NCBI GenBank assembly: GCA_022703645.1
Contig: JAKLDG010000001.1
Location: 75,756-139,755 of the forward strand
DNA length: 64,000 bases
Origin: Patescibacteria group bacterium
GTDB lineage: Bacteria; Patescibacteriota; JACPGU01
Reading direction: 5' to 3'
Shown: piece by piece, positions 6,073 to 58,054 of the stretch
How positions within the stretch are numbered: the first letter of the stretch is position 1
Layout of the letters: every line of letters starts with the position of its first letter
Notes under the pieces: model-generated
Databases searched by the model: none
What the model saw: the letters and a program-made list of their open reading frames with translations, nothing else
What the model was told of the DNA's origin: nothing
Program-made: the position numbers and the translations under genes

Positions 6073-7497
6073 ATGAAATACTTTCTTTATATTACAGGTT
6101 GCGATATGAATTATAGCGATGCCGAGCGAATCGCCACGGTTTTTAATGAACACGGATTTTCTTTAGCTTCAAGCGAAGGCGAGTCTGATATTATTGTTGC
6201 TGTCGCTTGTTCGGTTAGAGAAAAAGCGGTACATAAGATTTATGGAAAGGTTGAGAAATGGAGGAAGATCAATAAAACAAGAAATCAAGAAAACAAAAAA
6301 ACAAAAATCATGGTTACGGGGTGTGTCTTACCGCATGATAAGAAGAAGCTGGAGGAGAAGGTTGAACTGGTATTCGAAATTAAAGAAATTGAGAAATTAA
6401 GAAATTTCTTACAAAAAATTTCCAATTTTCAATTTTCAATTTCCAATAAATTTTCAATGACCAATGACCAATATTTAAGTATCAATCCTCAATACCATTC
6501 AAAATACTCTGTTTTCGTACCAATTATGACTGGTTGTGATAATTTTTGTTCATATTGCGCAGTGCCATATACGAGAGGAAGGGAAGTTAGCAGACCGCAA
6601 GAGGAGATCTTGGAAGAAATACGAAGCTTGGTTGAAGCCGGTTACAAAGAAATAACTTTGCTTGGGCAAAATGTGAATAGTTATGGGAAAATTCTCAATT
6701 CCCAATTCTCAATTCTCAATCAAATCTCAAATCACAATGATCAAAATTTGAAAATTGAAACATTGAAGAATTCAATGGAAATTGAAAATTGTAAATTGAA
6801 AATTAATAATCCATTTTTAACCCTTCTCAAACAAATTGACCAATTAGAAGGCAATTACTGGGTTCGATTTTATGCCAATCATCCAAAAGATATGAGCGAT
6901 GAGTTGATAAATTTTTTGGTGCAATCAAAACATTTCTGCCATTATATTCACCTGCCTTTGCAATCTGGAGATGATGAGATTCTGAAGAAAATGAACCGGC
7001 ATTATACTGCTAAACAATACTTAGATCTAGTAAAAAAAATCCGCAAAAAAATTCCGGATGTTGTTTTGACAACGGATATAATTGTTGGATTTCCAGGAGA
7101 AGATGAGAAAGCATTTAACAACACGGTTGATGTTATGAAAAAATCCAAGTTTGATATGGCGTTTATCGCGGAGTATTCCACTCGTTCTGGTACGGTTGCG
7201 AGTAAACTGAATGACGATGTAACGCATGCCGAAAAAGAACGCAGAAAGAAGTATCTTAATGACGAGATCTTGGCAAAAAGTATTTTGGAAAATAACAAAA
7301 AAATGGTTGATAAAAAAGTAAGAATTTTGCTTTCAGGTATAGATAATAAAGGATTTTTGAAAGGAAAAACTGCAGGATTGAAAGATGTAAAAATACCTTT
7401 CGTGAAAACCGAACATACGACCGAAATTGGCGATTTTATCGACGTGGTAATTACGAAAGCTGGAAGTTGGGGTTTGGAAGGAAAGTTTCAAGAATAG
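6073..7497 (+). CDS. miaB: tRNA methylthiotransferase, MiaB family (radical SAM plus TRAM domain), carrying two in-frame repeat insertions
   Basis: UPF0004 N-terminal domain, a CDNFCSYCAVPY radical-SAM CxxxCxxC motif and a C-terminal TRAM domain. Low-complexity inserts ISNFQFSISNKFSMTNDQ and KILNSQFSILNQ...ENCKLKINNP are encoded by the intergenic repeat family. A TGGTAAAAT -10 box lies 7 nt before the ATG. Confidence 0.85.
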   Translation: MKYFLYITGCDMNYSDAERIATVFNEHGFSLASSEGESDIIVAVACSVREKAVHKIYGKVEKWRKINKTRNQENKKTKIMVTGCVLPHDKKKLEEKVELVFEIKEIEKLRNFLQKISNFQFSISNKFSMTNDQYLSINPQYHSKYSVFVPIMTGCDNFCSYCAVPYTRGREVSRPQEEILEEIRSLVEAGYKEITLLGQNVNSYGKILNSQFSILNQISNHNDQNLKIETLKNSMEIENCKLKINNPFLTLLKQIDQLEGNYWVRFYANHPKDMSDELINFLVQSKHFCHYIHLPLQSGDDEILKKMNRHYTAKQYLDLVKKIRKKIPDVVLTTDIIVGFPGEDEKAFNNTVDVMKKSKFDMAFIAEYSTRSGTVASKLNDDVTHAEKERRKKYLNDEILAKSILENNKKMVDKKVRILLSGIDNKGFLKGKTAGLKDVKIPFVKTEHTTEIGDFIDVVITKAGSWGLEGKFQE

Positions 7498-7590: not shown

Positions 7591-8052
7591 TTAACAGCGA
7601 GCTTGAATTCCGATGTGTTGAAGCGCTCCTCTGTGGCGCGGGTGCAATCTTTCTTTAATCGGCTGCGTAGTTTCGGTTTTTTCGTCGCTGATTTGCGTGA
7701 CGATATTGGCGCCTGAATTGATAAGCCGGAGAAATCTGCTGGGAATCCAGTAGTTTTTCTTTGTTTTGATATCCACCGCTCCGAGTTCGCAGAGTTCGTT
7801 ATTCTCTTTCTTAAGTCTCGGTTGCAGGCAGCGCACTTTTCCGCTGGCAATAAAAACATGTCCCTTTTTGAATTCATCGAAGGTGCGAGTTTTCCCCGAG
7901 CAGTCAACAAAGTTATCAAAAAGGATGTAATGCCTCTGTCCTCCTTTGATTTCCTCGATCTGCGATACCCCTCCTTCATAGAAGAATTTTTCTCTCGGGA
8001 TCTCATTCACCATCTCTTTTAAAGTGCGCCGGCCTTCCTGCTTTTCTACCAT
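7591..8052 (-). CDS. hypothetical protein; a GC-rich gene lying between miaB and miaA
   Basis: A strong GGAGG site sits 7 nt upstream of the ATG. GC content is clearly above the local background. No family recognised. The overlapping alternative frame 7581..8006 is considered spurious. Confidence 0.5.
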   Translation of the reverse strand: MVEKQEGRRTLKEMVNEIPREKFFYEGGVSQIEEIKGGQRHYILFDNFVDCSGKTRTFDEFKKGHVFIASGKVRCLQPRLKKENNELCELGAVDIKTKKNYWIPSRFLRLINSGANIVTQISDEKTETTQPIKERLHPRHRGALQHIGIQARC

Positions 8053-8172
8053 ACACTTACCTCCTCAGTTAGAATTTTGTGGCAGTTGTATTGTATGGCA
8101 TATTGGTTATATAGTCAAGGGAAAAGGATGCCTTTATGAAGCAAATTTTAGAGATTGTGGTATAATATTAAT

Positions 8173-9123
8173 ATGGTGGAAAAAGATAACGAAATGCCAA
8201 AAATCATTGTTGTGTGCGGACCGACCGGGAGTGGGAAAACATCCTTGGCTGTACAGCTGTGCAAAAAATTCAATGGAGAAATTATTAATGCGGATAGCCG
8301 GCAAGTTTATCGAGAAATGGATATAGGGACGGGGAAGGGGGAAGTTAAAAGTGAAAAGTTAAAAGTGAAAAGTTTTGGAGTGCCTTCGGCACAATATTTA
8401 GAAGGGGTCAGAATTCATTTAGTAAATATTATTGAACCGAATAATAGGTATACCGTTGGGCAGTTTAAGATTAACGCGGAAGAGGCGATTGCGGATATTA
8501 TTTCGAGAGGAAAAGTTCCATTTATAGTTGGAGGTACGGGGATGTATATTGATGCGTTAGTGGATAATTTTCAATTTTCAAGTTTCAATTTTCAATCAAT
8601 TTCCAATAATCAATTCTCAATCAAAGAAAAAAGCTTAGAAGAATTGGTTAAACTTTTAGAAAAACTAGACCCGCAGGCGTTAAACGTTGTCGATCTGAAA
8701 AACCGCCGCCGTGTTGAACACGCTATTGAAGTTTGTTTGGCTACTGGAATTCCTTTTAGTAAACAGCGAACAAAGGGTGAGAGAAAATATAAAGTATTGA
8801 AATTGGCTCCCTTAGTTTCGCTCGAGCGTGAAAAGTTATATGAAAAAATAAATAAGCGGGTTGATGAGATGATTGAACAGGGGCTGGAAAATGAGGTTAA
8901 ATCGTTAGCAGAAAAATATGGTTGGGAGAGCGAGGCTATGACGGGTATCGGTTACCGTGAATTTCGCGATGAAAGCGATATCGAAAAGGTTAAGGATAAA
9001 ATTAAACAGGACACTCGCAACTATGCCAAGCGGCAAATGACTTGGTTTAAAAGAGATAAAGAAATAGGTTATATAGACCTAAAGAAAGCGGAGATGTTGG
9101 TAAAAGATTTTTTGAAAAAATAA
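8173..9123 (+). CDS. miaA: tRNA dimethylallyltransferase with two in-frame repeat insertions
   Basis: KIIVVCGPTGSGKTS P-loop and QVYREMDIGTGK motif. The start is taken at the ATG at 8173, 6 nt after the extended -10 box TGGTATAAT; the alternative start is the ATG at 8194. Inserted peptides: GEVKSEKLKVKSFGVPSAQYLE and DNFQFSSFNFQSISNNQFS. Confidence 0.8.
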   Translation: MVEKDNEMPKIIVVCGPTGSGKTSLAVQLCKKFNGEIINADSRQVYREMDIGTGKGEVKSEKLKVKSFGVPSAQYLEGVRIHLVNIIEPNNRYTVGQFKINAEEAIADIISRGKVPFIVGGTGMYIDALVDNFQFSSFNFQSISNNQFSIKEKSLEELVKLLEKLDPQALNVVDLKNRRRVEHAIEVCLATGIPFSKQRTKGERKYKVLKLAPLVSLEREKLYEKINKRVDEMIEQGLENEVKSLAEKYGWESEAMTGIGYREFRDESDIEKVKDKIKQDTRNYAKRQMTWFKRDKEIGYIDLKKAEMLVKDFLKK

Positions 9124-14494: not shown

Positions 14495-14576
14495 CCCGGC
14501 CTTTTATGTTATAATATCAGGGAATAATTAAACAATAAAGCAAGAAATCAAAAAAAACAATAAATCAATATATTTC

Positions 14577-19094: not shown

Positions 19095-19814
19095 ATGAAG
19101 CAGTACGAAATTACTTTTATTGTTAGTGAAAACTATAACGAAGACAAGGCGAAGTCAATCGCCAAAGAAGTTCGTGAGTTAATTGAATCTCGCGGCGGGA
19201 AAATAGAAAAAGACGTTTTTTGGGGCAAGAGAAAACTTGCTTATAAAATAGCCAAGAATACATTCGGCTATTATTTTGTTTTTGTATTTGTAATAGATAG
19301 TGTTAAAGTTAACTCGCTTAATCGAGATCTAAACCTGAATGAGAAAATTATGCGCTACTTGATTGGTGACTATATAGAAAATACATCATTCTTTGAAGAA
19401 GTCGGAACCAAGAAAAAAGAAGGTGGACAAAAACCGGACTTCAATAAATCAAGAAAGCAAGAAATCAACAAATCAAAGAAACGAGAAATCAAGGAAGAAA
19501 TTGAAGAAGTTCCAGTAGAGAAAGTTAAGGAGGAAGCTCCGGAAATTAAAATTGAGACCCCAGAAGTTATTGAAGAGCCAGTAGAAACCAAAGAGGAGAT
19601 TGAAGAAACAAAGGAAAAAATTCCAGAAGAAATTTCTGAAAAGAAATTAGAGGAAGAGGAAATTAAGGAAGTACCTGAAATTATTGAAGAGAAAAAAGAG
19701 GTTAAAGAGGAAAAAGAAGAAGAGGAACAGCCAAAGAGAAAGAAAATGACAGATGACGAGAGAAAAGCAGCTTTAGATGCAAAATTAGCAGAATTATTGA
19801 AGGATGAGGAGTAA
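19095..19814 (+). CDS. rpsF: 30S ribosomal protein S6 with a Glu/Lys-rich repetitive C-terminal extension of about 130 aa
   Basis: MKQYEITFIV...GKRKLAYKI is the S6 core. A long EEIKE-type tail follows. Confidence 0.85.
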   Translation: MKQYEITFIVSENYNEDKAKSIAKEVRELIESRGGKIEKDVFWGKRKLAYKIAKNTFGYYFVFVFVIDSVKVNSLNRDLNLNEKIMRYLIGDYIENTSFFEEVGTKKKEGGQKPDFNKSRKQEINKSKKREIKEEIEEVPVEKVKEEAPEIKIETPEVIEEPVETKEEIEETKEKIPEEISEKKLEEEEIKEVPEIIEEKKEVKEEKEEEEQPKRKKMTDDERKAALDAKLAELLKDEE

Positions 19815-19932
19815 GAAATTTTCATTTCTCAATTCTCAATTCACAATAAATTCTCAATGATTCAATGGTCAAATATTAAGAACTGCAAAATTGTAAAATT
19901 GATTGAAAATTGGAAATTGGAAATTGAAAATT
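19815..19932. repeat. MITE-like AT-rich palindromic repeat (TTTTCAA 7-mer family), full copy
   Basis: Left arm TTCTCAATTCTCAATTCACAAT; right arm GATTGAAAATTGGAAATTGGAAATTGAAAATT, the inverted repeat of the left arm. Nearly identical to the copy at 27393..27512, which is in inverse orientation. Confidence 0.8.
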
Positions 19933-19994
19933 AAAAAAAATTTAGATATATAACATTATTAGTAAGAGTTCCAAACAATTAGAAGGGAATTACT

Positions 19995-20489: not shown

Positions 20490-20516
20490 AAATCACGAAG
20501 CGATTTTTAGAAAATA

Positions 20517-20590
20517 CTAATATCTAAATTCTAAATCCTAAATTTGAAAATTAGAATTTTAGATTTGTTTAGAGATTAGATATTAGTGCT
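20517..20590. repeat. AT-rich palindrome: CTAATATCTAAATTCTAAATCCTAAATTT, loop, AGAATTTTAGATTTGTTTAGAGATTAGATATTAG
   Basis: Seen directly, between ssb and rpsR. Confidence 0.6.
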
Positions 20591-20661
20591 TAGAATTTTG
20601 ACAGTTAACATTGATAAACAGTAATAAAGAAATAATCTTTTAGAAATAATAATATAATCGC

Positions 20662-20957: not shown

Positions 20958-21512
20958 ATGCAGATGACCGACCTGAAACCAGGTATCAAGATTGAATACA
21001 ACGGCGCTCCACACGAGGTAATAAGCGCCAATTTTTCGCGTTCTTCCCAATCAAAAGGATTTATGACGACCCGTTTGCGCAATCTAATTGCGGGCAATGT
21101 TTTTGAAGTAGTATTCCGCGATCGCGATACTATAAATGGGGTGGAAATGGATAAAAGAAAAACGCAGTTTCTCTATAAAGAAGGAGAAAACTTTGTTTTT
21201 ATGGATAATAACACATTTGAACAATTTGAAATAAAAGACAGCATTCTTGGTGAAAAAAGCGGTTTTCTGAAAGACGGAATGGATGTTGAAATAATGATTT
21301 ACAAAGATGCTCCAATTTCAGTAGAATTGCCAGCAAAGGTTACATTGAAAATTATTCAAACTGAACCTGGAATCAAATCTGCTACAGCTTCCGATGTCCG
21401 CAAACCAGCTATCGTAGAAACTGGTTATAAATTAACAGTTCCAGCATTCATAAACGAGGGCGATATGATAAGAATCAATACGAGTACTGGAGAATACGTC
21501 GAACGTGCGTAG
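20958..21512 (+). CDS. efp: elongation factor P
   Basis: Three-domain EF-P (KPGIKIEYNGAPHEV, KDAPISVELP, C-terminal OB domain). Confidence 0.85.
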   Translation: MQMTDLKPGIKIEYNGAPHEVISANFSRSSQSKGFMTTRLRNLIAGNVFEVVFRDRDTINGVEMDKRKTQFLYKEGENFVFMDNNTFEQFEIKDSILGEKSGFLKDGMDVEIMIYKDAPISVELPAKVTLKIIQTEPGIKSATASDVRKPAIVETGYKLTVPAFINEGDMIRINTSTGEYVERA

Positions 21513-21524
21513 GCACGTTCTAGT

Positions 21525-21571
21525 TTAAAGTTAAAAGTGTAAAGTTCAAAGTTTTGGAGTCGCTTCGCGAC
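21525..21571. repeat. Repeat family C: AAAGTTAAAAGTGTAAAGTTCAAAGTTTTGGAG plus hairpin GTCGC-TTCG-GCGAC
   Basis: Related copy at 8341..8392 with the hairpin GTGCC-TTCG-GGCAC; the stem differs by compensatory changes around the same TTCG loop. Confidence 0.65.
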
Positions 21572-21762
21572 GATATTAATAAAATACAAAAAAATGCTAA
21601 AAAAATTGCTGAATTTTTTGAAAAAACTTTTTAACTTCCAAGCTAGTTCATATAAAGGAAATCTGAAGGATAGACCAACTGATTTTATTGATGATTAATT
21701 GAAAAATGAAGTATTGTTAAAACTGTCTTTTTGAGGCGGTTTTTTTGTGCTATAATTTTCCT

Positions 21763-23081: not shown

Positions 23082-23813
23082 ATGAAAAAACGCCTTGATA
23101 TGCTTGTTTTTGAAAAAGGATTAGCTGATTCTCGTGAGAAAGCTCAGCGACTAATTATGGCTGGGTCAATTTCGCTTAACGGCAAAAAAGAAACCAAACC
23201 TGGATCAAGGTTTGATGAAGATGCTAAGATTGAGGTTGTTGAAAAACAAAGATACGTAGGTCGCGGAGCAGAAAAGCTTGGGAAGGCTGCCAATGTGTTC
23301 CAAATCGATTTTAAAGGCAAAACAGTAGCTGACATTGGTTCATCAACCGGAGGTTTTACTGACTTCGCGCTTCAACATGGAGCCAAGAAGGTTTTTGCGA
23401 TAGATGTTGGTCGCGGCCAGCTGGCTTGGACGCTGCGTAACGACAAAAGAGTTGTGGTAATGGAGGAGACGAATTTTAAAGATGTGAAAGAGTTACCGGA
23501 GAGAATTGATATTTTTGTTATTGACGTGTCATTTATTTCGGTTAAAAGGATTTTAGAAAATATTTCAAAATATTTCAAAATATTTAATAATATTCAAATA
23601 ATATTACTTTTCAAACCACAGTTTGAAGCAGGCAAGGCGATTGCCGATAAATACAAAGGGGTAATAAAAGATCCTGATATTCATGAGAGTCTTCTCGCAG
23701 ATTTCCGACTCTGGTGTATAGAGAATGGGTTTGAGATACGTGGAGAGGTTGAATCGCCAATTAAAGGTAGCAAAGGGAACACTGAGTTTTTATTCCATTT
23801 AAAAATAATTTAA
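23082..23813 (+). CDS. tlyA: TlyA-family rRNA 2'-O-methyltransferase (S4 domain plus FtsJ fold)
   Basis: S4 RNA-binding N-terminus, SAM-binding DIGSSTGGFTD motif and an AAGGAG ribosome-binding site. It contains the in-frame low-complexity insert ENISKYFKIFNNIQII, encoded by a (CAAAATATTT)n repeat. Confidence 0.8.
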   Translation: MKKRLDMLVFEKGLADSREKAQRLIMAGSISLNGKKETKPGSRFDEDAKIEVVEKQRYVGRGAEKLGKAANVFQIDFKGKTVADIGSSTGGFTDFALQHGAKKVFAIDVGRGQLAWTLRNDKRVVVMEETNFKDVKELPERIDIFVIDVSFISVKRILENISKYFKIFNNIQIILLFKPQFEAGKAIADKYKGVIKDPDIHESLLADFRLWCIENGFEIRGEVESPIKGSKGNTEFLFHLKII

Positions 23814-23928
23814 TTTTCAATTTCCAATTTTCAGTTTTCAATAAATTTCCAATGATTCAATGAACCAATATTGAGAATTGCAAAATTATTACATTGATTG
23901 AAAATTGAGAAATGATAATTGAAAATTT
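23812..23928. repeat. MITE-like AT-rich palindromic repeat, diverged full copy
   Basis: AATTTTCAATTTCCAATTTTCAGTTTTCAAT...CATTGATTGAAAATTGAGAAATGATAATTGAAAATTT. It abuts the tlyA stop and the next gene's start. Confidence 0.75.
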
Positions 23929-25767: not shown

Positions 25768-27512
<1,745 letters not shown>

Positions 27513-33047: not shown

Positions 33048-33407
33048 TTATTTTATCTTTAGTATCTTATTGATCTTTTTTGTAATTTCGGAAAGGTTTG
33101 TTGCTGATTTTATGAAATAATCTATTGCGCCAAGCTTTGTTGCCCGAGCTTTATCTTCATCTTGAGATAGGTTTGTTAGCACAATAACCGGCACTTTAGT
33201 TTTTAATTTTTCTAAGAATTCAAAGCCGTTCATTTTCGGCATCAGCAGGTCGAGGAGTATTAAGTCCGGTTTCGCTTTCTTACAAACTTCTATCCCTACA
33301 GCTCCGTTTTCCGCTGAAAAAACTTGAAAACCAGCAGAGAGTAACTCCATATTAAGAGCTTTCATTAATATTTGGTCGTCTTCGACGACAAGTATTTTTT
33401 TATTCAT
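33048..33407 (-). CDS. single-domain response regulator (CheY-like receiver)
   Basis: Receiver domain with the Asp pocket (VVEDD, LLDLLMP, K near the C-terminus). The start is at the ATG 6 nt after TGTTATAAT. Confidence 0.8.
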   Translation of the reverse strand: MNKKILVVEDDQILMKALNMELLSAGFQVFSAENGAVGIEVCKKAKPDLILLDLLMPKMNGFEFLEKLKTKVPVIVLTNLSQDEDKARATKLGAIDYFIKSATNLSEITKKINKILKIK

Positions 33408-37728: not shown

Positions 37729-37854
37729 TGGAAAATTTTCAATTTTCAATTCTCAATTTCCAATCAATGTGTCAATTCTTCAATTTCTAAATTTTAATTC
37801 ATTGATTCATTGAAAATTCAATGAAAATTGTAAATTGTAAAATTGAAAATTTCC
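37729..37854. repeat. MITE-like AT-rich palindromic repeat, copy flanking the GerMN gene (downstream side)
   Basis: About 95% identical to the copy at 38787..38902 in direct orientation. Confidence 0.8.
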
Positions 37855-38786: not shown

Positions 38787-38902
38787 AAATTTTCAATTCT
38801 CAATTTCCAATCAATGTCTCAATTTTCCAATTTCTAAAAAGTTAATTCATTGATTCATTGAAAATTCAATGAAAATTGTAAATTGTAAAATTGAAAATTT
38901 CC
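38787..38902. repeat. MITE-like AT-rich palindromic repeat, copy flanking the GerMN gene (upstream side)
   Basis: See 37729..37854. It abuts the DUF456 stop codon. Confidence 0.8.
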
Positions 38903-41469: not shown

Positions 41470-41601
41470 GCCAAAATATTAATAATATTAACAGGTATTT
41501 CCTGCTTACGATCATTGTATATTCTGTGTGAGTTTAGTCAAGAGGTAAAAACAATTAAACAAAAAAGAAAAAAACAAGAAAACAAGAATTCAGAAAAAAG
41601 A

Positions 41602-42006
41602 TTAAGAGCCGCGTATTTTTTTGGCAGTTTCTTCAAGAGAAGTATCCTTGAAATCACTTTTTGGCCAGGTGTCGAGTCCATCATTTGTAAATCGCGGAAT
41701 GATATGGAAATGGAGATGAAAAACTGTTTGTTGAGCATCAATCCCGCTGGCATTCATCAGATTTACTCCTGTTGCGCCAAGGTCTTGCTTTATTAAACTT
41801 GAAACCTTTTTCAGCGCAGCAGTTATTTCTTTCAAATATTCATCATCTGCATCAAAGATATCCATGCAGTGCTTTTTGGGGATTACCAATGTGTGGCCTT
41901 TTGCAATAGGGTTAACATCTAAGAAAGCTAATACGTGATCGTTTTCCCAGATCTTGTGAGCTGGGATTTCTCCTGCAACGATTTTACAAAAAATACAATT
42001 TTCCAT
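41602..42006 (-). CDS. HIT-family (histidine triad) hydrolase
   Basis: HLHFHIIPR histidine triad. The start is at MENCIFCKIV; the longer ORF would overlap the upstream gene. Confidence 0.8.
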   Translation of the reverse strand: MENCIFCKIVAGEIPAHKIWENDHVLAFLDVNPIAKGHTLVIPKKHCMDIFDADDEYLKEITAALKKVSSLIKQDLGATGVNLMNASGIDAQQTVFHLHFHIIPRFTNDGLDTWPKSDFKDTSLEETAKKIRGS

Positions 42007-42049: not shown

Positions 42050-43762
42050 TTAATTAATTGTCTTAACCATATATGTATCTTCAAGTTTATATCCGATTTT
42101 TTTATAATATTCACGCGCTCCAACTCCGGAAATTACAGCGATTTTTTTATAACCCGCTTTCCTCGCTATTTGTTCAGCTTGGACAATTAAATTCTTACCA
42201 AGTCCCTTATGCTGCTTCGCGTCTTCTCCGATTTGTCCAACGTCGAGAGCCTGACCATATGTATGGACTTCACGAATGATAGCGGTTTCTGTAGGGGCAG
42301 GTTTGAAACCTGCCCCTACGGGTAGGCGTAACCGTAATAATGCATATAAATGAGAATGATTATCAATAAGTTCAAGGAATACTTCTTCACCGCCGGAGGC
42401 ATTGTATTCGATCTTATTTAATTTGGGCGTATACAATACGCCCCTACGAGATATTTTTGTTTTGTTGATTTCTTGTTCATTTGTTTCTTTGTCCTTGATT
42501 TCACGGCAACGGATACACTGGCACTGCCAACCCTCTTTTTGCGAATGATTATCAATAAGCTGTCTTAGATTTGTGGTTTTATTCCCTGCGATGATACTCT
42601 CTTCTGGAATATCGCGGATGAGGCGGCTGATGCGAACATATGGCGGAATGATCTTTTTTATATCACAAATTAGCTTTAGAAGTTGTTTATCTGTGTAGGC
42701 TTTATATTTTTTTTCTTTCCAGAGTTTATACAGATCAGAATCTTTGACAACAACGCAGGGATAAATTTTCAACTGATCCGGCTGGAAGTCTTGGCTAGAA
42801 AACAGGTCTTTAAACATTTGTAGGTCTTTCTTCAGATTTGAACCATAGAGTCCCGGCATCATATGATAGGAAACTTTAAATCCAAAGTCCTTCATAAGTT
42901 TGGTAGCGCGGATAGTTTCAGATACATCGTGTCCTCTGCGGTTCTTTTTCAACACTTCATTGTAGATACTCTGAACACCAATCTCGATACGGGTTGCGCC
43001 CATATCACGAAATTTCACAAGTTCTTTTTCAGTAATCAGATCAGGACGAGTTTCGAGAGTGAGACCGATAACTCGAGATTTGGTGGATTCATTTTTTGAT
43101 TGTTCAATCTGTAGCTGTCGTTTTAGTTCAACTAAATTCAACTTGCTATCTTGATATCTTGTTATCTTGTTTTTTTTCTTCTTTTGATAATTGATCATTG
43201 GGAATTGATTGAAAATTGAAAATTGAAAATTGTTGCAAGCCCTATAACATTCTTTCACAAACCAATATTGGTATTTAGTAGGCAGAGCATTAAAACTTCC
43301 TCCCATGATAATCAACTCAATCTTGTCCGTGGAGTGCCCGGATTTTTCGAGCGCAGTGAGACGAATTTCAATTTGGCGATAAGGATCAAAATCTGCGAGA
43401 ATAGCGCGCATCACAGCAGGCTCATTGGACAAATAAGATTTAGGCATATTCTTTTCGGTTGGACAATATAAACAATTTCCCGGGCAACCGTATTCCTTAG
43501 TCAGCACGGAAACAACGGCTACTCCCGAAAGGGTGCGCATTTTTGCTTTTCGCAATAATCTTTCAATATCTGAGTTTTTCTTAACCTTTTTCTTTTTCAG
43601 TAATTCTTCATAAACCTGAGTTAGCCCGTAGTTTGGCAGAGAATCTATCTTAAACTGCGTACTAATCTCGTTTTTCAGTATCATAAAATCGCGCAGCTTT
43701 GTTATTCCCCGTTCGCAAGCGCGAATAATCAGTTCTTGTTTTGCATTATTTATACTCTGCAT
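42050..43762 (-). CDS. Elp3-like radical-SAM plus GNAT protein (tRNA wobble-uridine modification family), with in-frame repeat insertions
   Basis: CPGNCLYCP radical-SAM cluster motif and a C-terminal GNAT domain (QHKGLGKNLIVQAEQIARKAGYKKIAV). The insert NNFQFSIFNQFP derives from the 7-mer repeat. The insert VGAGFKPAPT is encoded by the GC hairpin at 42291..42319. Confidence 0.75.
   Translation of the reverse strand: MQSINNAKQELIIRACERGITKLRDFMILKNEISTQFKIDSLPNYGLTQVYEELLKKKKVKKNSDIERLLRKAKMRTLSGVAVVSVLTKEYGCPGNCLYCPTEKNMPKSYLSNEPAVMRAILADFDPYRQIEIRLTALEKSGHSTDKIELIIMGGSFNALPTKYQYWFVKECYRACNNFQFSIFNQFPMINYQKKKKNKITRYQDSKLNLVELKRQLQIEQSKNESTKSRVIGLTLETRPDLITEKELVKFRDMGATRIEIGVQSIYNEVLKKNRRGHDVSETIRATKLMKDFGFKVSYHMMPGLYGSNLKKDLQMFKDLFSSQDFQPDQLKIYPCVVVKDSDLYKLWKEKKYKAYTDKQLLKLICDIKKIIPPYVRISRLIRDIPEESIIAGNKTTNLRQLIDNHSQKEGWQCQCIRCREIKDKETNEQEINKTKISRRGVLYTPKLNKIEYNASGGEEVFLELIDNHSHLYALLRLRLPVGAGFKPAPTETAIIREVHTYGQALDVGQIGEDAKQHKGLGKNLIVQAEQIARKAGYKKIAVISGVGAREYYKKIGYKLEDTYMVKTIN
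42291..42319. repeat. GC-rich hairpin GTAGGGGCAGGTTTGAAACCTGCCCCTAC located in-frame inside the Elp3-like CDS
   Basis: Perfect 13-bp stem. The same sequence occurs after priA at 13936..13963. Confidence 0.75.
43195..43243. repeat. 7-mer repeat segment (AATTGAAAATTGAAAATTGAAAATTG) in-frame in the Elp3-like CDS
   Basis: Its orientation matches the gene strand, so it is read as NFQFSIFNQF. Confidence 0.7.
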
Positions 43763-45185: not shown

Positions 45186-46970
45186 TTTCGATCCGCTAAA
45201 GCTTCCATTACAACCAACACTGACTCCTTGGGTGCTTACATGAACAGTGAATGTACCGGAAACGCTGGTGCCATTAAAATTAAATATCTGCTGAACGGTT
45301 CCCATGCCGGAAAGATTCATTGACCAAACGGCTCTACCGCTGGAATTGATTTTTGCGCTCTGACCATCTCCAAAGTACACAACATTATTTTTGACGGTCA
45401 AACTATCATCGAATACTCCAAGGTTTCCAAGATTAACGCCTGGTACATTTGTGCCACAGTTTCCGTAGCTGTATCTTACGTTGTAATTACCGTTAAAAGA
45501 AACTGGCGTTGGAGTTGGTGTTGGGCTTGGATTTGGGTTTGGAGTAGGAATTATTTTTGGGACCACCACAGGAGCTTTTGGAACCAGTCCAAGTTCTGGA
45601 CAACCAGTACCACCACCGGCATAAGTTCGTCCGGAATAAGTCATAAATTCCCAGCATCCGCCGATTTTGCAATTATATCCACCTTCGGTGGTTGGTAGTC
45701 TTTCTTTGGTCAAAGAAGATGGGTCAGGATCTCCGCCACGCGATTTACAACTATTCCGGAAAGCTTCAACTCTCGGAGGAAATTGAGGCGCTACATTTGG
45801 TTCTGCCGGAGTGATTCCTACGCCACCTAATGGAAGAACGTCTAAACCCTCTCCAATCGGTTGAAAAGAATTGTTCCAATCAGCAGTAGTCGTTTCAGGC
45901 GCAGCTGGTCCGACAGTATAATTTTTCTGCGCAATAGCTCTGGCTTTGCCAACCGAATCTCTAGATTGAGCAAGACAAATGCTTTTACCTCCGCTAGTTG
46001 GGAAACAAATGCTTCTTGTTCGTATTACCGCAGCACCGGTTCGAGTTGCCGCATAGGCAGGAGTTACGATAGTTCCTTGCGCGTAAGATTGGTAAGTCTC
46101 TATAGAAGTGAAAAAATGATCGAGCGTGGTAAGACGCGCAGCAATAAAGCGCAATTTGTCCCGATTCTGATTTTTCAGAGCATCGAGTCCTAAATCTCTC
46201 AATGTTGCAATGTCCTCTACATTATTTCCAAATAAACCCCTGATCCATGAATCAGAAACCAGAATCTCAAATTTTTCCGGTTCATCTGATAGAGCTGTCC
46301 AGCTAGCATAATCTTTCGCGCCGACAATTTTATCCGCCCATGCCGATACGGAATCAACGTAGCCTTTCAATTCTGAAGGATAAGAAACTTCATTCAATCG
46401 CGTTTTTTCTGCCGCCGCAGCATCAGTAACGTTTTGCAGCGTTACTCCGGAAACTGGCAGCGATCCCTGTTTCATAATTGTATCGCCAAGCAATTTTGCT
46501 GCGGAAATTTCAGTGACTTTATCTTGGATAAAACTAACTCTGCTCGCAATTTGGTTATATTTGTATGAGCGGTATGATAGAAATGATACCAAAATAACCA
46601 ATATCAACAAAACTAAAGCAATCAAGGCAATCTTCGGTTTTTTTATCCCGGCTTTAACCAATTTTTTTATTAATGCAAAAATACCGATCACTATAAATAC
46701 AATCAATGCAATCCCAATCAATCCATAAATAGCACTTTGCTGATCGTTAGAAGACATAATTAGGTAAGGGACCACCATTATGATTAAAAAAATACCCAAA
46801 GCAACAAGACACCCATTCCCTTGTTTCTTTTTTTTCGCGAGAACCGCTTTATCATCAACTGTTTTAATGTCTTCTTTCTTCTCTCCCGCATCTTTTTTTA
46901 CAGGATCACCGCACTTCGGACAAAATTTTGATTGCGCCGAAATTTTTGCACCGCAATTAGAACAAAACAT
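45180..46970 (-). CDS. zinc-ribbon membrane protein with a large extracytoplasmic domain and a Pro/Thr linker
   Basis: N-terminal CSNCG...CPKCG zinc ribbon, two transmembrane helices, a PTPNPNPSPTPTPTP linker and a beta-rich C-terminus. Confidence 0.5.
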   Translation of the reverse strand: MFCSNCGAKISAQSKFCPKCGDPVKKDAGEKKEDIKTVDDKAVLAKKKKQGNGCLVALGIFLIIMVVPYLIMSSNDQQSAIYGLIGIALIVFIVIGIFALIKKLVKAGIKKPKIALIALVLLILVILVSFLSYRSYKYNQIASRVSFIQDKVTEISAAKLLGDTIMKQGSLPVSGVTLQNVTDAAAAEKTRLNEVSYPSELKGYVDSVSAWADKIVGAKDYASWTALSDEPEKFEILVSDSWIRGLFGNNVEDIATLRDLGLDALKNQNRDKLRFIAARLTTLDHFFTSIETYQSYAQGTIVTPAYAATRTGAAVIRTRSICFPTSGGKSICLAQSRDSVGKARAIAQKNYTVGPAAPETTTADWNNSFQPIGEGLDVLPLGGVGITPAEPNVAPQFPPRVEAFRNSCKSRGGDPDPSSLTKERLPTTEGGYNCKIGGCWEFMTYSGRTYAGGGTGCPELGLVPKAPVVVPKIIPTPNPNPSPTPTPTPVSFNGNYNVRYSYGNCGTNVPGVNLGNLGVFDDSLTVKNNVVYFGDGQSAKINSSGRAVWSMNLSGMGTVQQIFNFNGTSVSGTFTVHVSTQGVSVGCNGSFSGSKL

Positions 46971-49600: not shown

Positions 49601-51442
49601 ATGGATAACATAAGAAATTTTTGTATTATAGCGCATATCGATCACGGGAAGTCAACTTTGGCTGACCGATTATTGGAGTTGACTGGAACGGTGAGTAAAC
49701 GCGATATGAAGGCGCAGCTTCTTGATTCGATGGATCTGGAGCGCGAAAGAGGTATAACGATAAAACTTCAGCCCGCACGAATGGACTATCATTACGAAAT
49801 GACAAATGACAAATTTCAAATGTCAAATCAAATCCAAAATCCAAATGTCAAAAAGGGGAAGTTTATTCTTAACCTGATAGACACACCGGGGCATGTGGAT
49901 TTTGGTTATGAAGTCAGCCGATCGCTGGCTGCTGTTGAAGGGGCGCTACTAATCGTAGACGCTGCGCAAGGGATCCAGGCGCAAACGCTGGCCAATGCTT
50001 ATCAAGCGCAAGATCAAGGACTCGTAATGATTCCAGTAATAAATAAAATCGACCTGCCGGCTGCAGAACCGGAAAAGGTGGCGAATGAATTAATTAATAC
50101 TTTTGGATTTAAAAAAGAAGAAATGATTTATGTGTCGGCCAAGACTGGACAGGGCGTTGACGAAGTTCTGGACGCGATAGTTGAGAGAATCCCAGCACCT
50201 ACTGGAAATGCGACAGGAGATCTACGCGCGTTAATTTTTGATTCAAAATATGATTCTTACCGCGGAGTTATCACTTATGTTCGTGTCGTTGATGGCGAGA
50301 TAAAAAGTGGCGATATTATAAACTTAATGTTTGCAAATAAAAAAACGGATGCTCTGGAAGTGGGTTATTTCAAACCGGAAATGGTGAAATCAGGAAAACT
50401 TTTGGCCGGGGAGATAGGTTACATCGTTACTTCGCTTAAAGACATATCTCTGGCCGGAGTAGGTGATACTGTAACTCTGGAAAAAACGAAGGAAACTGTC
50501 CAATCATTACCGGGCTATATGAAAGTGAAGCCGACAGTATTCGCGGGAATTTATCCGGCGGATAGCAATGATCTCAATAAACTTCGCGAAGGATTATCAA
50601 AGCTCAAAATGAATGACGCAGCGCTGGAATTTACGGGCGAAAACTCACCAGTCCTTGGACTTGGTTTTCGCGTTGGATTTCTAGGAATGCTTCACCTTGA
50701 TATTATAAAAGAACGTCTCGAGCGCGAGTTTTCCTTGGAACTTATTATCACACATCCGACAGTTGGTTATGAAATAGATCTGACGAATGGAGATAAAATT
50801 CGCACGAGTAACCCGGCAGATTTTCCGGGAGTTGATAGAATAAAATCGATTGCTGAACCTTGGGTACGTACGGAAATATTATTACCGAAAAGCTACGTCG
50901 GTCAGGTAATTGAAATGTTGGCGAGATACCGCGGGATATTTAAAGAGGTAAAATACTTAGATGAAAATAAAGCACTGATACTTTATGAAATTCCGCTGGC
51001 TGTAATGATTAAAGATTTTTATGACGATCTGAAGTCAGTTTCTTCCGGTTATGCTTCGCTAAACTACGAACACATCGGGCTTCGGGTAGGCGACCTAGTA
51101 AAAATGGATGTATTGCTTGCTGGTGATAAAATAGAATCACTGAGCCAAATAGTTGATCGGGGAGAAGCGCAGAAATTGGGGAATGAGATAGTAAGCAAGC
51201 TCAAAAAATTAATTCCAAAACAGATGTTTGAGGTTTCAATCCAAGCCGCAATCGGTTCAAAAATATTAGCGCGTGAAAATATGTCGGCAATGAAAAAAGA
51301 TGTTGCAGGATATCTGTACGGAGGCGATCGAACTCGAAAAGATAAACTCATAAATAAGCAAAAAGAAGGCAAAAAAAAGATGAAGGCGCTCGGACGAGTG
51401 AATGTGCCGAGCTCGGTATTCTTGGATTTGATGAAGAAATAG
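49601..51442 (+). CDS. lepA: elongation factor 4 (LepA) with an in-frame low-complexity insertion in the G domain
   Basis: IRNFCIIAHIDHGKSTL and NLIDTPGHVDF motifs. The start is at MDNIRNF, 7 nt after TGATAGAAT. The insert EMTNDKFQMSNQIQNPNVKKGKF comes from an AAATGAC/AAATCCA 7-mer repeat at 49795..49860. Confidence 0.85.
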   Translation: MDNIRNFCIIAHIDHGKSTLADRLLELTGTVSKRDMKAQLLDSMDLERERGITIKLQPARMDYHYEMTNDKFQMSNQIQNPNVKKGKFILNLIDTPGHVDFGYEVSRSLAAVEGALLIVDAAQGIQAQTLANAYQAQDQGLVMIPVINKIDLPAAEPEKVANELINTFGFKKEEMIYVSAKTGQGVDEVLDAIVERIPAPTGNATGDLRALIFDSKYDSYRGVITYVRVVDGEIKSGDIINLMFANKKTDALEVGYFKPEMVKSGKLLAGEIGYIVTSLKDISLAGVGDTVTLEKTKETVQSLPGYMKVKPTVFAGIYPADSNDLNKLREGLSKLKMNDAALEFTGENSPVLGLGFRVGFLGMLHLDIIKERLEREFSLELIITHPTVGYEIDLTNGDKIRTSNPADFPGVDRIKSIAEPWVRTEILLPKSYVGQVIEMLARYRGIFKEVKYLDENKALILYEIPLAVMIKDFYDDLKSVSSGYASLNYEHIGLRVGDLVKMDVLLAGDKIESLSQIVDRGEAQKLGNEIVSKLKKLIPKQMFEVSIQAAIGSKILARENMSAMKKDVAGYLYGGDRTRKDKLINKQKEGKKKMKALGRVNVPSSVFLDLMKK

Positions 51443-57480: not shown

Positions 57481-57518
57481 AATTTAGTTTATTATATATA
57501 AACGTTGGTTGCCAAAAA

Positions 57519-57625
57519 ACTTTCAGTTTTCAATTTCCATTACAGGTATCGCTTCGCGATATATTAAATATAAGAATTGAATCATTGATAATTGATTGAG
57601 AATTGGAAATTGTAAAATTGAAAAT
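57519..57625. repeat. MITE-like AT-rich palindromic repeat copy containing an embedded ATCGC-TTCG-GCGAT hairpin
   Basis: TTTCAGTTTTCAATTTCCAT...GATTGAGAATTGGAAATTGTAAAATTGAAAATTT. It abuts the dut stop codon. Confidence 0.7.
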
Positions 57626-58054
57626 TTATCCGGTTGAACCAAATCCTCCTCTATTTTTATCATCCATTTTCTCTACTTGAATCAGTCCCACTTTTTCTAC
57701 CGGTAAGAACATTCCCTGCGCGATGCGTTCGCCTTTTTCTATTCTTACGATCTCATCAGTAAAATTATAAGCACAAAACAGCACCTCATCACTTTCTCCG
57801 CAATAGTCCTGATCGATAACGCCAATGTGATTTCCTTGAAATAATCCTTTTTTCTTTGCCAGAGAGCTGCGCGGAGAAATAAGAAAAACATAACCTTCCG
57901 GAGTTTTAACAATAATATTAAGAGGTACGAGCACGATTGACTTTGGCGCTACTTCAATATCGATTCTTGAATACAAATCAAAAGCTACAGAGCCAGCCGT
58001 TTGATAGGCAGGCAAGGGGAGGGAAGGGTCAATCAATTTAATTTGAACATTCAT
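57626..58054 (-). CDS. dut: dUTP diphosphatase
   Basis: GSVAFDL, RSSLA, GVIDQDYCGE and RGGFGSTG motifs. The start is chosen at MNVQIKL, 6 nt after a TATACT -10 box; the alternative ATG is 6 nt upstream at 58060. Confidence 0.8.
   Translation of the reverse strand: MNVQIKLIDPSLPLPAYQTAGSVAFDLYSRIDIEVAPKSIVLVPLNIIVKTPEGYVFLISPRSSLAKKKGLFQGNHIGVIDQDYCGESDEVLFCAYNFTDEIVRIEKGERIAQGMFLPVEKVGLIQVEKMDDKNRGGFGSTG

Follow-up and report, generated by a model that had tools for sequence, protein, structure and literature searches.

The DNA analysed here, referred to throughout as the window, is a 64 kb stretch (G+C 37.8%) of contig JAKLDG010000001.1 from a Patescibacteria group bacterium, and the element under study is a small repeat module that lies in frame within miaA, the gene for tRNA dimethylallyltransferase, recurs 3′ of efp and has a third, intergenic copy. 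In the miaA and efp-3′ copies an A-rich heptamer array is followed by the junction TTTTGGA, a 13-nt perfect palindrome (GTGCCTTCGGCAC at 8380-8392 and GTCGCTTCGCGAC at 21559-21571, respectively) and AATATT or GATATT. Tandem Repeats Finder (TRF) places period-7 arrays at 8342-8374 and at 21522-21554, and the two copies, at 8343-8403 and 21522-21582, are 79% identical across 61 nt (repeat family D15), which bears out the repeat family proposed in a preliminary description of the window. The parts of the miaA copy, the other two copies and the open reading frame (ORF) that adjoins one of them are as follows.

8173..9123, + strand: host gene miaA (Pfam IPPT, E 8e-66)
8342..8374, + strand: A-rich array of 4.7 tandem heptamer units AAAAGTK, with a 100% match at period 14 (TRF, sequence)
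8373..8379, + strand: junction TTTTGGA from array to hairpin, family form TT(T/A)GG(A/T) (copy alignments)
8380..8392, + strand: mini-hairpin GTGCC-TTC-GGCAC, 5 bp and a 3-nt loop, coding for V-P-S-A-(Q) (hairpin search)
8393..8398, + strand: 3′ flank AATATT, family form (R)ATATT (copy alignment)
21522..21577, + strand: second copy, with array 21522-21554, TTTTGGA, GTCGC-TTC-GCGAC at 21559-21571 and GATATT (TRF, covariance model 53 bits)
21595..21699, + strand: conserved 34-codon small ORF 3′ of the efp copy and outside the repeat (orthologous ORFs in L044 and L045)
57535..57570, + strand: third copy, with GGT, (T)ATCGC-TTC-GCGAT(A) at 57548-57560 and ATATT (covariance model 36-37 bits)

The miaA ORF has start options at 8155, 8173 and 8194 and ends at 9123; within it the module is in frame and reads GEVKSEKLKVKSFGVPSAQYLEG, the array being translated as VKSEKLKVKS. 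The resulting insert of ~15-20 residues follows DIGTGK and corresponds to a 15-residue gap in the chain of structure 2zm5, which we take to be E. coli MiaA, and to gaps of 13-15 residues in 3d3q, 2qgn and 3eph, in agreement with the earlier view of this copy as a translated insert that E. coli MiaA lacks; the other solved MiaA proteins are without it too. In an AlphaFold prediction of the window MiaA (mean predicted local distance difference test score, pLDDT, of 85) residues 54-63 are the sole stretch below 50, and pLDDT is low too in a second repeat-derived insert at residues ~126-145 (8566-8621). To judge from this model, both inserts behave as tolerated loops. The window MiaA is 100% identical to P0001, a Patescibacteria group MiaA, and its nearest named relative, from a CPR3 bacterium, shares 64% identity.

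The preliminary description had drawn the hairpins as 14 nt with a UUCG tetraloop (GTGCC-TTCG-GGCAC for the miaA copy). Those strings are absent and the real hairpins are 13 nt, with TTC as the loop and the G of "TTCG" paired with the C that precedes TTC. If TTCG is taken as the loop, the stem stops, the next apposition being C-C or G-A, whereas with TTC there are five perfect pairs, and a search forced to a 4-nt TTCG loop finds neither copy. Between the miaA and efp-3′ copies stem positions 3 and 4 are changed on both sides with pairing intact.

Copies in the window and their look-alikes

The second copy sits between the efp stop (21512) and the conserved small ORF, and has an ortholog in L045, one of the related loci (L numbers) compared here. 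A terminator scan gave no call at 21559-21571 and one at 21719-21743; as this terminator-like site of the efp operon lies after the small ORF, the module is intercistronic and not terminal. The small ORF itself (34-41 codons; MLKKLLNFLKKLFNFQASSYKGNLKDRPTDFIDD in the window, 10685-10810 in L045 and ~9144-9269 in L044) falls below the minimum of the ORF list (50-120 aa), and relatives share its motif SSYKGNLKD(K/R)P. A candidate right arm of the efp copy was rejected, as it lies inside this ORF and is not complementary in L045. Directly before the module, at 21501-21520, a perfect 8-bp hairpin, GAACGTGC-GTAG-GCACGTTC, holds the efp stop TAG in its loop; this hairpin is not conserved in L044 or L045.

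The third copy, whose hairpin string is ATCGCTTCGCGAT, lies near the AATATT centre of an AATTTTC-type heptamer palindrome at 57516-57627 (I14), in the spacer that separates two genes of the - strand, dut and one for an M16 peptidase (Pfam). Its membership had been proposed previously and holds at 37 bits, with the hairpin one base downstream of the position first given, at 57548-57560 and not 57547..57559. All three window copies have one chromosomal orientation despite the differing orientation of the genes around them.

A fourth candidate did not withstand inspection. The hairpin 3′ of ssb, previously counted as a family copy at 20497..20509, reads as follows.

20492..20504, no strand assigned: ssb-3′ hairpin ATCACGAAGCGAT with A5/T5 flanks, a non-member (no covariance-model match)

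It has an A-C mismatch on the + strand and neither the TTTGGA nor the ATATT flank, and neither covariance model matches it at E <= 10. Its fold energies are -2.8 kcal/mol on the + strand and -5.3 on the - strand, and in appearance it is a small bidirectional terminator hairpin of the ordinary A-tract/GC-stem/T-tract kind seen at I12, I21 and I25 in the window.

Palindromes with a C-TTC-G core and at least four further pairs number five in the window against 0.75 expected, and 0 of 200 shuffles reach five. These are the miaA and efp-3′ hairpins and those at 57547-57561, 33375-33389 and 45679-45691. The hairpins at 33375 (GTCGTCTTCGACGAC, in a response-regulator gene), 45679 and 58451 are without array and flanks and unmatched by the models, and are treated as unrelated.

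Copies in related Patescibacteria

A covariance model was built from eight anchored copies and rebuilt (R2) from twelve. With filters off the models find exactly three copies in the window, at 21546-21582 (53 bits), 8367-8403 (43-46 bits) and 57535-57570 (36-37 bits). Searching with hairpin and flank, as the preliminary description had suggested, yielded the third window copy; orthologous loci, a pattern scan and the model gave nine more in related Patescibacteria, a total of 12 copies in the ~190 kb of window and related loci. Each true copy is preceded on the 5′ side by a heptamer array. The copies outside the window are these.

miaA site, L001: GTGCC-TTC-GGCAC, CAAAAAT array
miaA site, L002, 1492-1504: GTGGC-TAC-GCCAC, CAAATGY/CAAAAGT array
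miaA site, L040: GTGGC-TTC-GCCAC, CAAATGY/CAAAAGT array
efp-3′ site, L045 (EF-P 73% identical): TTATAAAG/TGGAAAG array, CATCGC-TTT-GCGATG, ATATTAT
ELP3-like radical-SAM gene, L003: GTCGC-TTC-GCGAC, in frame (covariance model 52-54 bits)
priA, L002 (~7656-7668): in frame
priA, L043: in frame
thrS, L043, 3722-3759: ATCGC-TGAC-GCGAT with a 4-nt loop, in frame
intergenic, L015: long palindrome whose arms are heptamer arrays

Across deep divergence, relatives have kept the module at both the miaA and the efp-3′ site. The efp-3′ site of L044 (EF-P 78% identical) is without it, and in Magasanikbacteria miaA an AAAGT-type array occupies the same site with no hairpin, GTTTT-AATG-AATAT standing there versus GTTTT-GGAGTGCCTTCGGCAC-AATAT. 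In thrS of L043 the module fills a 24-codon stretch of the same length as unrelated native sequence in the window and L003, which makes it a replacement of native codons rather than an insertion. Both L002 copies, in miaA and priA, have the loop TAC where most other genomes have TTC, which hints at within-genome homogenisation or a genome-specific constraint.

Exact-pattern scans used TTGGAGTNNCTTCGNNACNATAT, in which complementarity of NN/NN was not required, and from 185,579 species-representative genomes came 11 matches, from JGI metagenomes 25. Only three of the 36 have complementary stems, and these are exactly the three with an upstream heptamer array: miaA of the metagenome-assembled genome JAQULF01, a same-strain contig of the window, and the new intergenic copy L015. 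The other 33 exact-core matches are chance and the exact core is rare; a high-copy family with the strict core was accordingly rejected, the core matching only once in the species-representative genome JAQULF01.

Conservation of pairing

Over the 12 copies the stem positions are Watson-Crick in 59 of 60 cases with no G-U, and the sole mismatch is C-A on the array (sense) strand. Three of the five stem pairs show changes on both sides (G-C/A-T, C-G/G-C and G-C/C-G). None of 500 shuffles reaches the observed score for pairing or for covariation, and pairing falls to 7-25% when the partner is slid by one column. Ascertainment does not explain the covariation, because orthology, or a pattern free of complementarity, led to most of the copies. 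The compensatory stem differences first noted between two copies therefore hold and are strengthened by a family of 12, in which further copies exist and covariation is kept.

The loop is less constrained than the stem, with TTC in eight copies, TAC in two, and TTT and TGAC in one each; its first and last bases (T...C) are kept and its middle varies. At the miaA site the stems are GTGCC/GGCAC in the window and L001 and GTGGC/GCCAC in L002 and L040, and the arrays differ as well (AAAAGTK, CAAAAAT and CAAATGY/CAAAAGT). At the efp-3′ site GTCGC-TTC-GCGAC in the window stands against ATCGC-TTT-GCGAT in L045. Comparison of these aligned loci shows that over divergence the heptamer units have been replaced in concert, and the hairpin changed by paired substitutions only.

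The peptides encoded by the hairpin vary among copies (VPSAQ, VASPQ, VATPH, VASRQ and IADAM), and at the miaA site the paired stem change turns VPSAQ into VASPQ or VATPH. As the peptide varies while pairing is kept, it is self-complementarity that is conserved and not the peptide. The 13 nt of the miaA hairpin are identical at the orthologous site of L001, within the longest window-L001 identity in miaA, a run of 21 nt over the hairpin, in a gene where codons for identical residues match in only 52% of cases.

These data bear directly on the suggestion that the module is a low-complexity coincidence, or an insert selected at the protein level whose codons are palindromic by chance. High AT content and an abundance of heptamer arrays in the genome, and the overlap of the priA hairpin with a semi-conserved S-L-R-D/E peptide, would favour such a view; yet non-coding copies exist (efp-3′, 57548 and L015), pairing and not peptide is conserved, the palindrome count lies above every shuffle, and the models score 37-53 bits (E 1e-6 to 1e-10). 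Non-coding copies and covariation largely refute this explanation, and we hold it to be very improbable.

RNA or DNA

The preliminary description read the compensatory changes as selection on RNA structure, and the most serious alternative to the reading proposed below is of this kind: a cis-acting RNA hairpin under selection as a 3′-exonuclease barrier, an RNase processing site or a translational pause, with the array as a protein-binding platform. The compensatory changes themselves agree with it, as do the stability of the isolated RNA hairpins (-6.4 to -9.7 kcal/mol; the miaA hairpin folds at -7.1 kcal/mol as RNA and -4.5 as DNA), the intercistronic position of the efp copy between efp and small ORF in both the window and L045, and the sense orientation of all in-gene copies. 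Several findings weigh against it. The UUCG tetraloop is ruled out and the loop is variable. The 59 paired positions contain no G-U, and C-A on the sense strand is the one mismatch. Of the four intergenic copies two (57548 and L015) run antisense to the genes beside them, and the downstream flank is AATATT or GATATTAAT, with neither a U-tract nor a terminator call. In a 121-nt miaA context the minimum-energy fold does not include the hairpin, and the region has no folding advantage over shuffles (z = +0.6). No Rfam family matches at the gathering threshold anywhere in the window, permissive scans giving sub-threshold chance matches only. Selection on RNA structure is not supported, and we regard an RNA hairpin of this type as an unlikely explanation.

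On the opposite strand the loops are GAA in eight copies, GTA in two and GTCA in one, with AAA in L045. GCGAAGC is found in the window efp-3′ and 57548 copies, L040, L003, L015 and L043 priA, GCGTAGC in both L002 copies, GCGTCAGC in L043 thrS, CCGAAGG in the window and L001 miaA copies (8380..8392 in the window), and GCAAAGC, which matches no motif, in L045. Taken together, GCGNAGC or GCGNNAGC stands in 9 of 12 copies and CCGAAGG in two, so that 11 of 12 carry an exact motif at the tip. These motifs are those of exceptionally stable DNA mini-hairpins, which have a melting point near 76 C as DNA and a far lower one as RNA (PMC13037366). By comparison of motifs, the conserved G...A loop ends of the opposite strand fit the DNA motif GCGNAGC better than any RNA loop motif. 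Nearest-neighbour DNA folding gives ~-4.4 kcal/mol for both strands, by a method that ignores the sheared G-A pair.

Such motifs have known roles in single-stranded DNA (ssDNA). They occur at the complementary-strand origin of phage G4, with CCGAAGG in the single-strand initiation (ssi) signal ssiA of RSF1010, and the promoters of the phage N4 virion RNA polymerase (vRNAP) are hairpins of 5 bp with a 3-nt loop, GAA or GGA (PMC13037366). The bottom-strand GNA-loop mini-hairpin (GCGAAGC/CCGAAGG) of the module may by analogy be an ssDNA signal, such as ssi-like priming, a replication pause or a hairpin promoter, which the replication or priming machinery would recognise or be stalled by. In that case the heptamer arrays would be a by-product or an accessory binding site, or the mutational footprint left where the polymerase slips at the hairpin. 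Besides the match of the bottom-strand loops to these motifs, the shared chromosomal orientation of the three window copies across differing gene orientations speaks for such a signal. The sample is very small, though, the loop of the L045 copy is AAA, the bare motif shows no clear enrichment in the window, GC skew follows gene orientation in the window and gives no replication direction, and no candidate binding protein has been identified. The likeness to mini-hairpin DNA motifs is a resemblance of sequence with a putative role only, and we judge an ssDNA signal improbable, more so than an RNA hairpin. If true, it would mean that essential genes of reduced genomes carry replication-linked structural signals within their coding sequence, with the in-frame peptides only a tolerated by-product.

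Proposed origin and maintenance of the module

We propose a model of the miaA feature that most reasonably fits these observations. With moderate confidence, a little on the favourable side of even, we take it to be one copy of a dispersed module of repeated DNA, specific to the lineage, in a Patescibacteria (candidate phyla radiation, CPR) clade near CPR3/Microgenomates, in which self-complementarity is kept and the loop tolerated. The module consists of an A-rich heptamer array, TT(T/A)GG(A/T), a 13-nt mini-hairpin of the form RT-SS-C / T-N-C / G-SS-AY and (R)ATATT, and is part of a wider population of heptamer arrays that fills intergenic spacers and permissive protein loops. In miaA its translation is free of stops and gives a disordered surface loop of ~15-20 residues, tolerated by the enzyme. 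What is maintained, we infer, is DNA self-complementarity and neither a UUCG RNA tetraloop nor a peptide. Maintenance and spread most likely arise from replication-level processes at the stable hairpin: slippage there would make and remodel the adjacent heptamers, and template switching would re-perfect or copy the palindrome.

Another explanation is a recently active miniature mobile element, whether a miniature transposable element with inverted repeats (MITE), a repetitive extragenic palindrome or its paired form (REP/REPIN) or a very small hairpin element; a transposase would move it, and it would home into heptamer arrays. The core GGAGTCGCTTCGCGAC-ATAT at non-orthologous sites (window efp-3′, L015 intergenic and L003 radical-SAM), the TAC loop common to both L002 copies and the hairpin-less array of Magasanikbacteria miaA would all suit an element that moves. 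Against this, neither terminal inverted repeats nor target-site duplications are visible at the miaA or efp copies, where the empty orthologs L003 and P0012 are too diverged to fix boundaries; no GTAG or CGTC tag is found; the copy number is low, with the strict core once in JAQULF01; orthologous copies are retained across deep divergence; and arrays differ between copies that share a core. A phage origin was considered and rejected, the three viral matches being unrelated, and no phage link was found. The reuse of sites, the hairpin-less array and the thrS replacement fit replication-driven repeats better than cut-and-paste insertion. Recent mobility of this kind seems to us doubtful, marginally more so than an ssDNA signal.

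Several points weigh against the replication-driven repeat that we favour. Slippage and template switching are a mechanism that we infer. The perfect 5-bp stem and the identical 21-nt core, at ~69% protein identity, could equally mean purifying selection on an RNA or DNA function. A role at the mRNA level would also agree with the in-gene copies, which in four host genes have TTC on the coding strand. The TAC loops of L002 and the recurrence of GTCGC/ATCGC stems at non-orthologous sites suggest copying from master copies, and hence mobility. Copy number is low, at 3 in 64 kb, and bare GCGNAGC is not clearly over-represented in the window, one strand having 15 occurrences versus 7.3 (a level that 4 of 200 shuffles attain) and the other no significant excess.

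Relation to known repeat systems

Rickettsia palindromic elements (RPE) were reportedly described by Ogata et al. in 2000 as "selfish DNA in protein-coding genes". Like RPE, the module is a small structured repeat that is both intergenic and in frame in housekeeping genes, adds an extra surface segment and is retained in orthologs: it is in frame in miaA, priA, thrS and the ELP3-like gene, intergenic at efp-3′, 57548 and L015, and absent from solved MiaA. Unlike RPE, which are 100-150 nt and form one long palindrome, it is ~55-60 nt, combines an array with a 13-nt GC mini-hairpin, has a single arm in the miaA and efp copies, and turns over its array units between orthologs. Elhai et al. are said to have described, in 2008, cyanobacterial heptamer tandem repeats (short tandemly repeated repetitive sequences, STRR) into which very small dispersed repeats are inserted. 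TAACTGA heptamer repeats are known from Beggiatoaceae (PMC4679880). The module shares with these arrays a period of exactly 7, intergenic enrichment and hairpin-capable units of ~20 nt near the arrays. It differs in belonging to another phylum and in having units that vary by locus, are often in frame in essential genes and often form inverted pairs; the Beggiatoaceae TAACTGA arrays are, unlike those of the module, untranslatable in forward orientation. Related cases are MITEs inside genes in Coxiella (PMC5896051) and the RU and enterobacterial repetitive intergenic consensus (ERIC) elements of enterobacteria (PMC2759123). RPE and the intragenic MITEs of Coxiella and enterobacteria are the closest parallels in behaviour, and the cyanobacterial and Beggiatoa heptamer arrays the closest in anatomy.

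REP/REPIN elements with their REP-associated tyrosine transposases (RAYT; PMC3733652, PMC3116915) are likewise short, dispersed GC-rich palindromes with conserved pairing and variable stem sequence. The module, by contrast, has the hairpin foot GGAGT, GGTGT or GGTAT in all copies, with no GTAG/CGTC, an attached array, and copies in coding sequence, and among the window proteins, which were partly scanned, no RAYT was seen, with 3 module copies in 64 kb. GTAG-tagged palindromes of relatives (L043 miaA, L001 priA) use the same permissive sites and are a separate family. The 5-bp stem with a 3-nt loop and the exact motif in 11 of 12 bottom strands recall the DNA mini-hairpins GCGNAGC/GCGNNAGC/CCGAAGG and the N4 promoter hairpins; these are priming and promoter signals of phages and plasmids, whereas the module is chromosomal, also stands in coding sequence and is known here at the level of sequence. 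The letters TTCG at the tip of a GC-rich stem resemble cUUCGg tetraloops and intrinsic terminators, from which the module is separated by its paired G, UUC loop, lack of a U-tract and inconsistent orientation to transcription. Literature searches returned no description of such elements in CPR bacteria.

If the replication-driven reading holds, CPR genomes, commonly called "streamlined", carry lineage-specific heptamer-array/mini-hairpin repeats that reshape surface loops of MiaA, MiaB, PriA, ThrRS and an ELP3-like protein. The PSA/ASP swap would then be a natural case of nucleic-acid pairing conserved over the encoded peptide inside a coding region. Low-complexity inserts rich in N/K/Q/S or F/Q/S/I in CPR proteins would call for caution in annotation, as they would stem from DNA repeats. 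The analysis yields a covariance model and a testable DNA-versus-RNA question; it reveals no new RNA class and no new molecular machine.

Other repeats of the window

The module sits in a setting rich in similar arrays, among genes that by Pfam include ssb, efp, rpsF, dut, a MiaB-like gene and the M16 peptidase gene; a tRNA scan of the window found none. The window holds 36 period-7 arrays, 22 of them in the 13% that is intergenic, often as inverted pairs abutting stop codons, and 14 in frame in genes. Large AT-rich palindromes of the form (AATTTTC)n...AATATT...(GAAAATT)n are the dominant repeat class, fill spacers and abut stop codons; AATATT, the 3′ flank of the miaA hairpin, is also the usual centre of the large heptamer palindromes in the genome. 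The array features are listed below.

19817-19937, 23812-23927, 27395-27510, 37734-37851, 38788-38899, 57516-57627 and 20512-20594: AT-rich palindromes
6417-6472 and 6690-6804: in-frame arrays, MiaB-like gene
8566-8621: in-frame array, MiaA
15317-15341: in-frame array, fmt
43142-43232: in-frame array, ELP3-like radical SAM gene
49797-49845: in-frame array

The in-frame arrays encode low-complexity inserts that are FQFSI/NQ-rich or K/N/Q/S-rich, and the one at 6690-6804 is a complete palindromic element in frame. Relatives use the same positions of these proteins again for other arrays or for GTAG-tagged GC palindromes. GC-rich double palindromes tagged GTAG...CTAC, for example GTAGGGGCAGAACATGTTCTGCCC...AGGGGCGCAATATATTGCGCCCCTAC, appear REP-like and occupy permissive sites in miaA (L043, 10001-11053) and at the C-terminus of priA (L001, ~19130-19190). 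Period-8 A-rich arrays (CAAGAAAA/TCAAGAAA) lie at 19432-19511, 6260-6315, 14523-14570 and 41547-41604, and ribosomal protein S6 owes part of its long, K/E-rich C-terminal extension to one such array.

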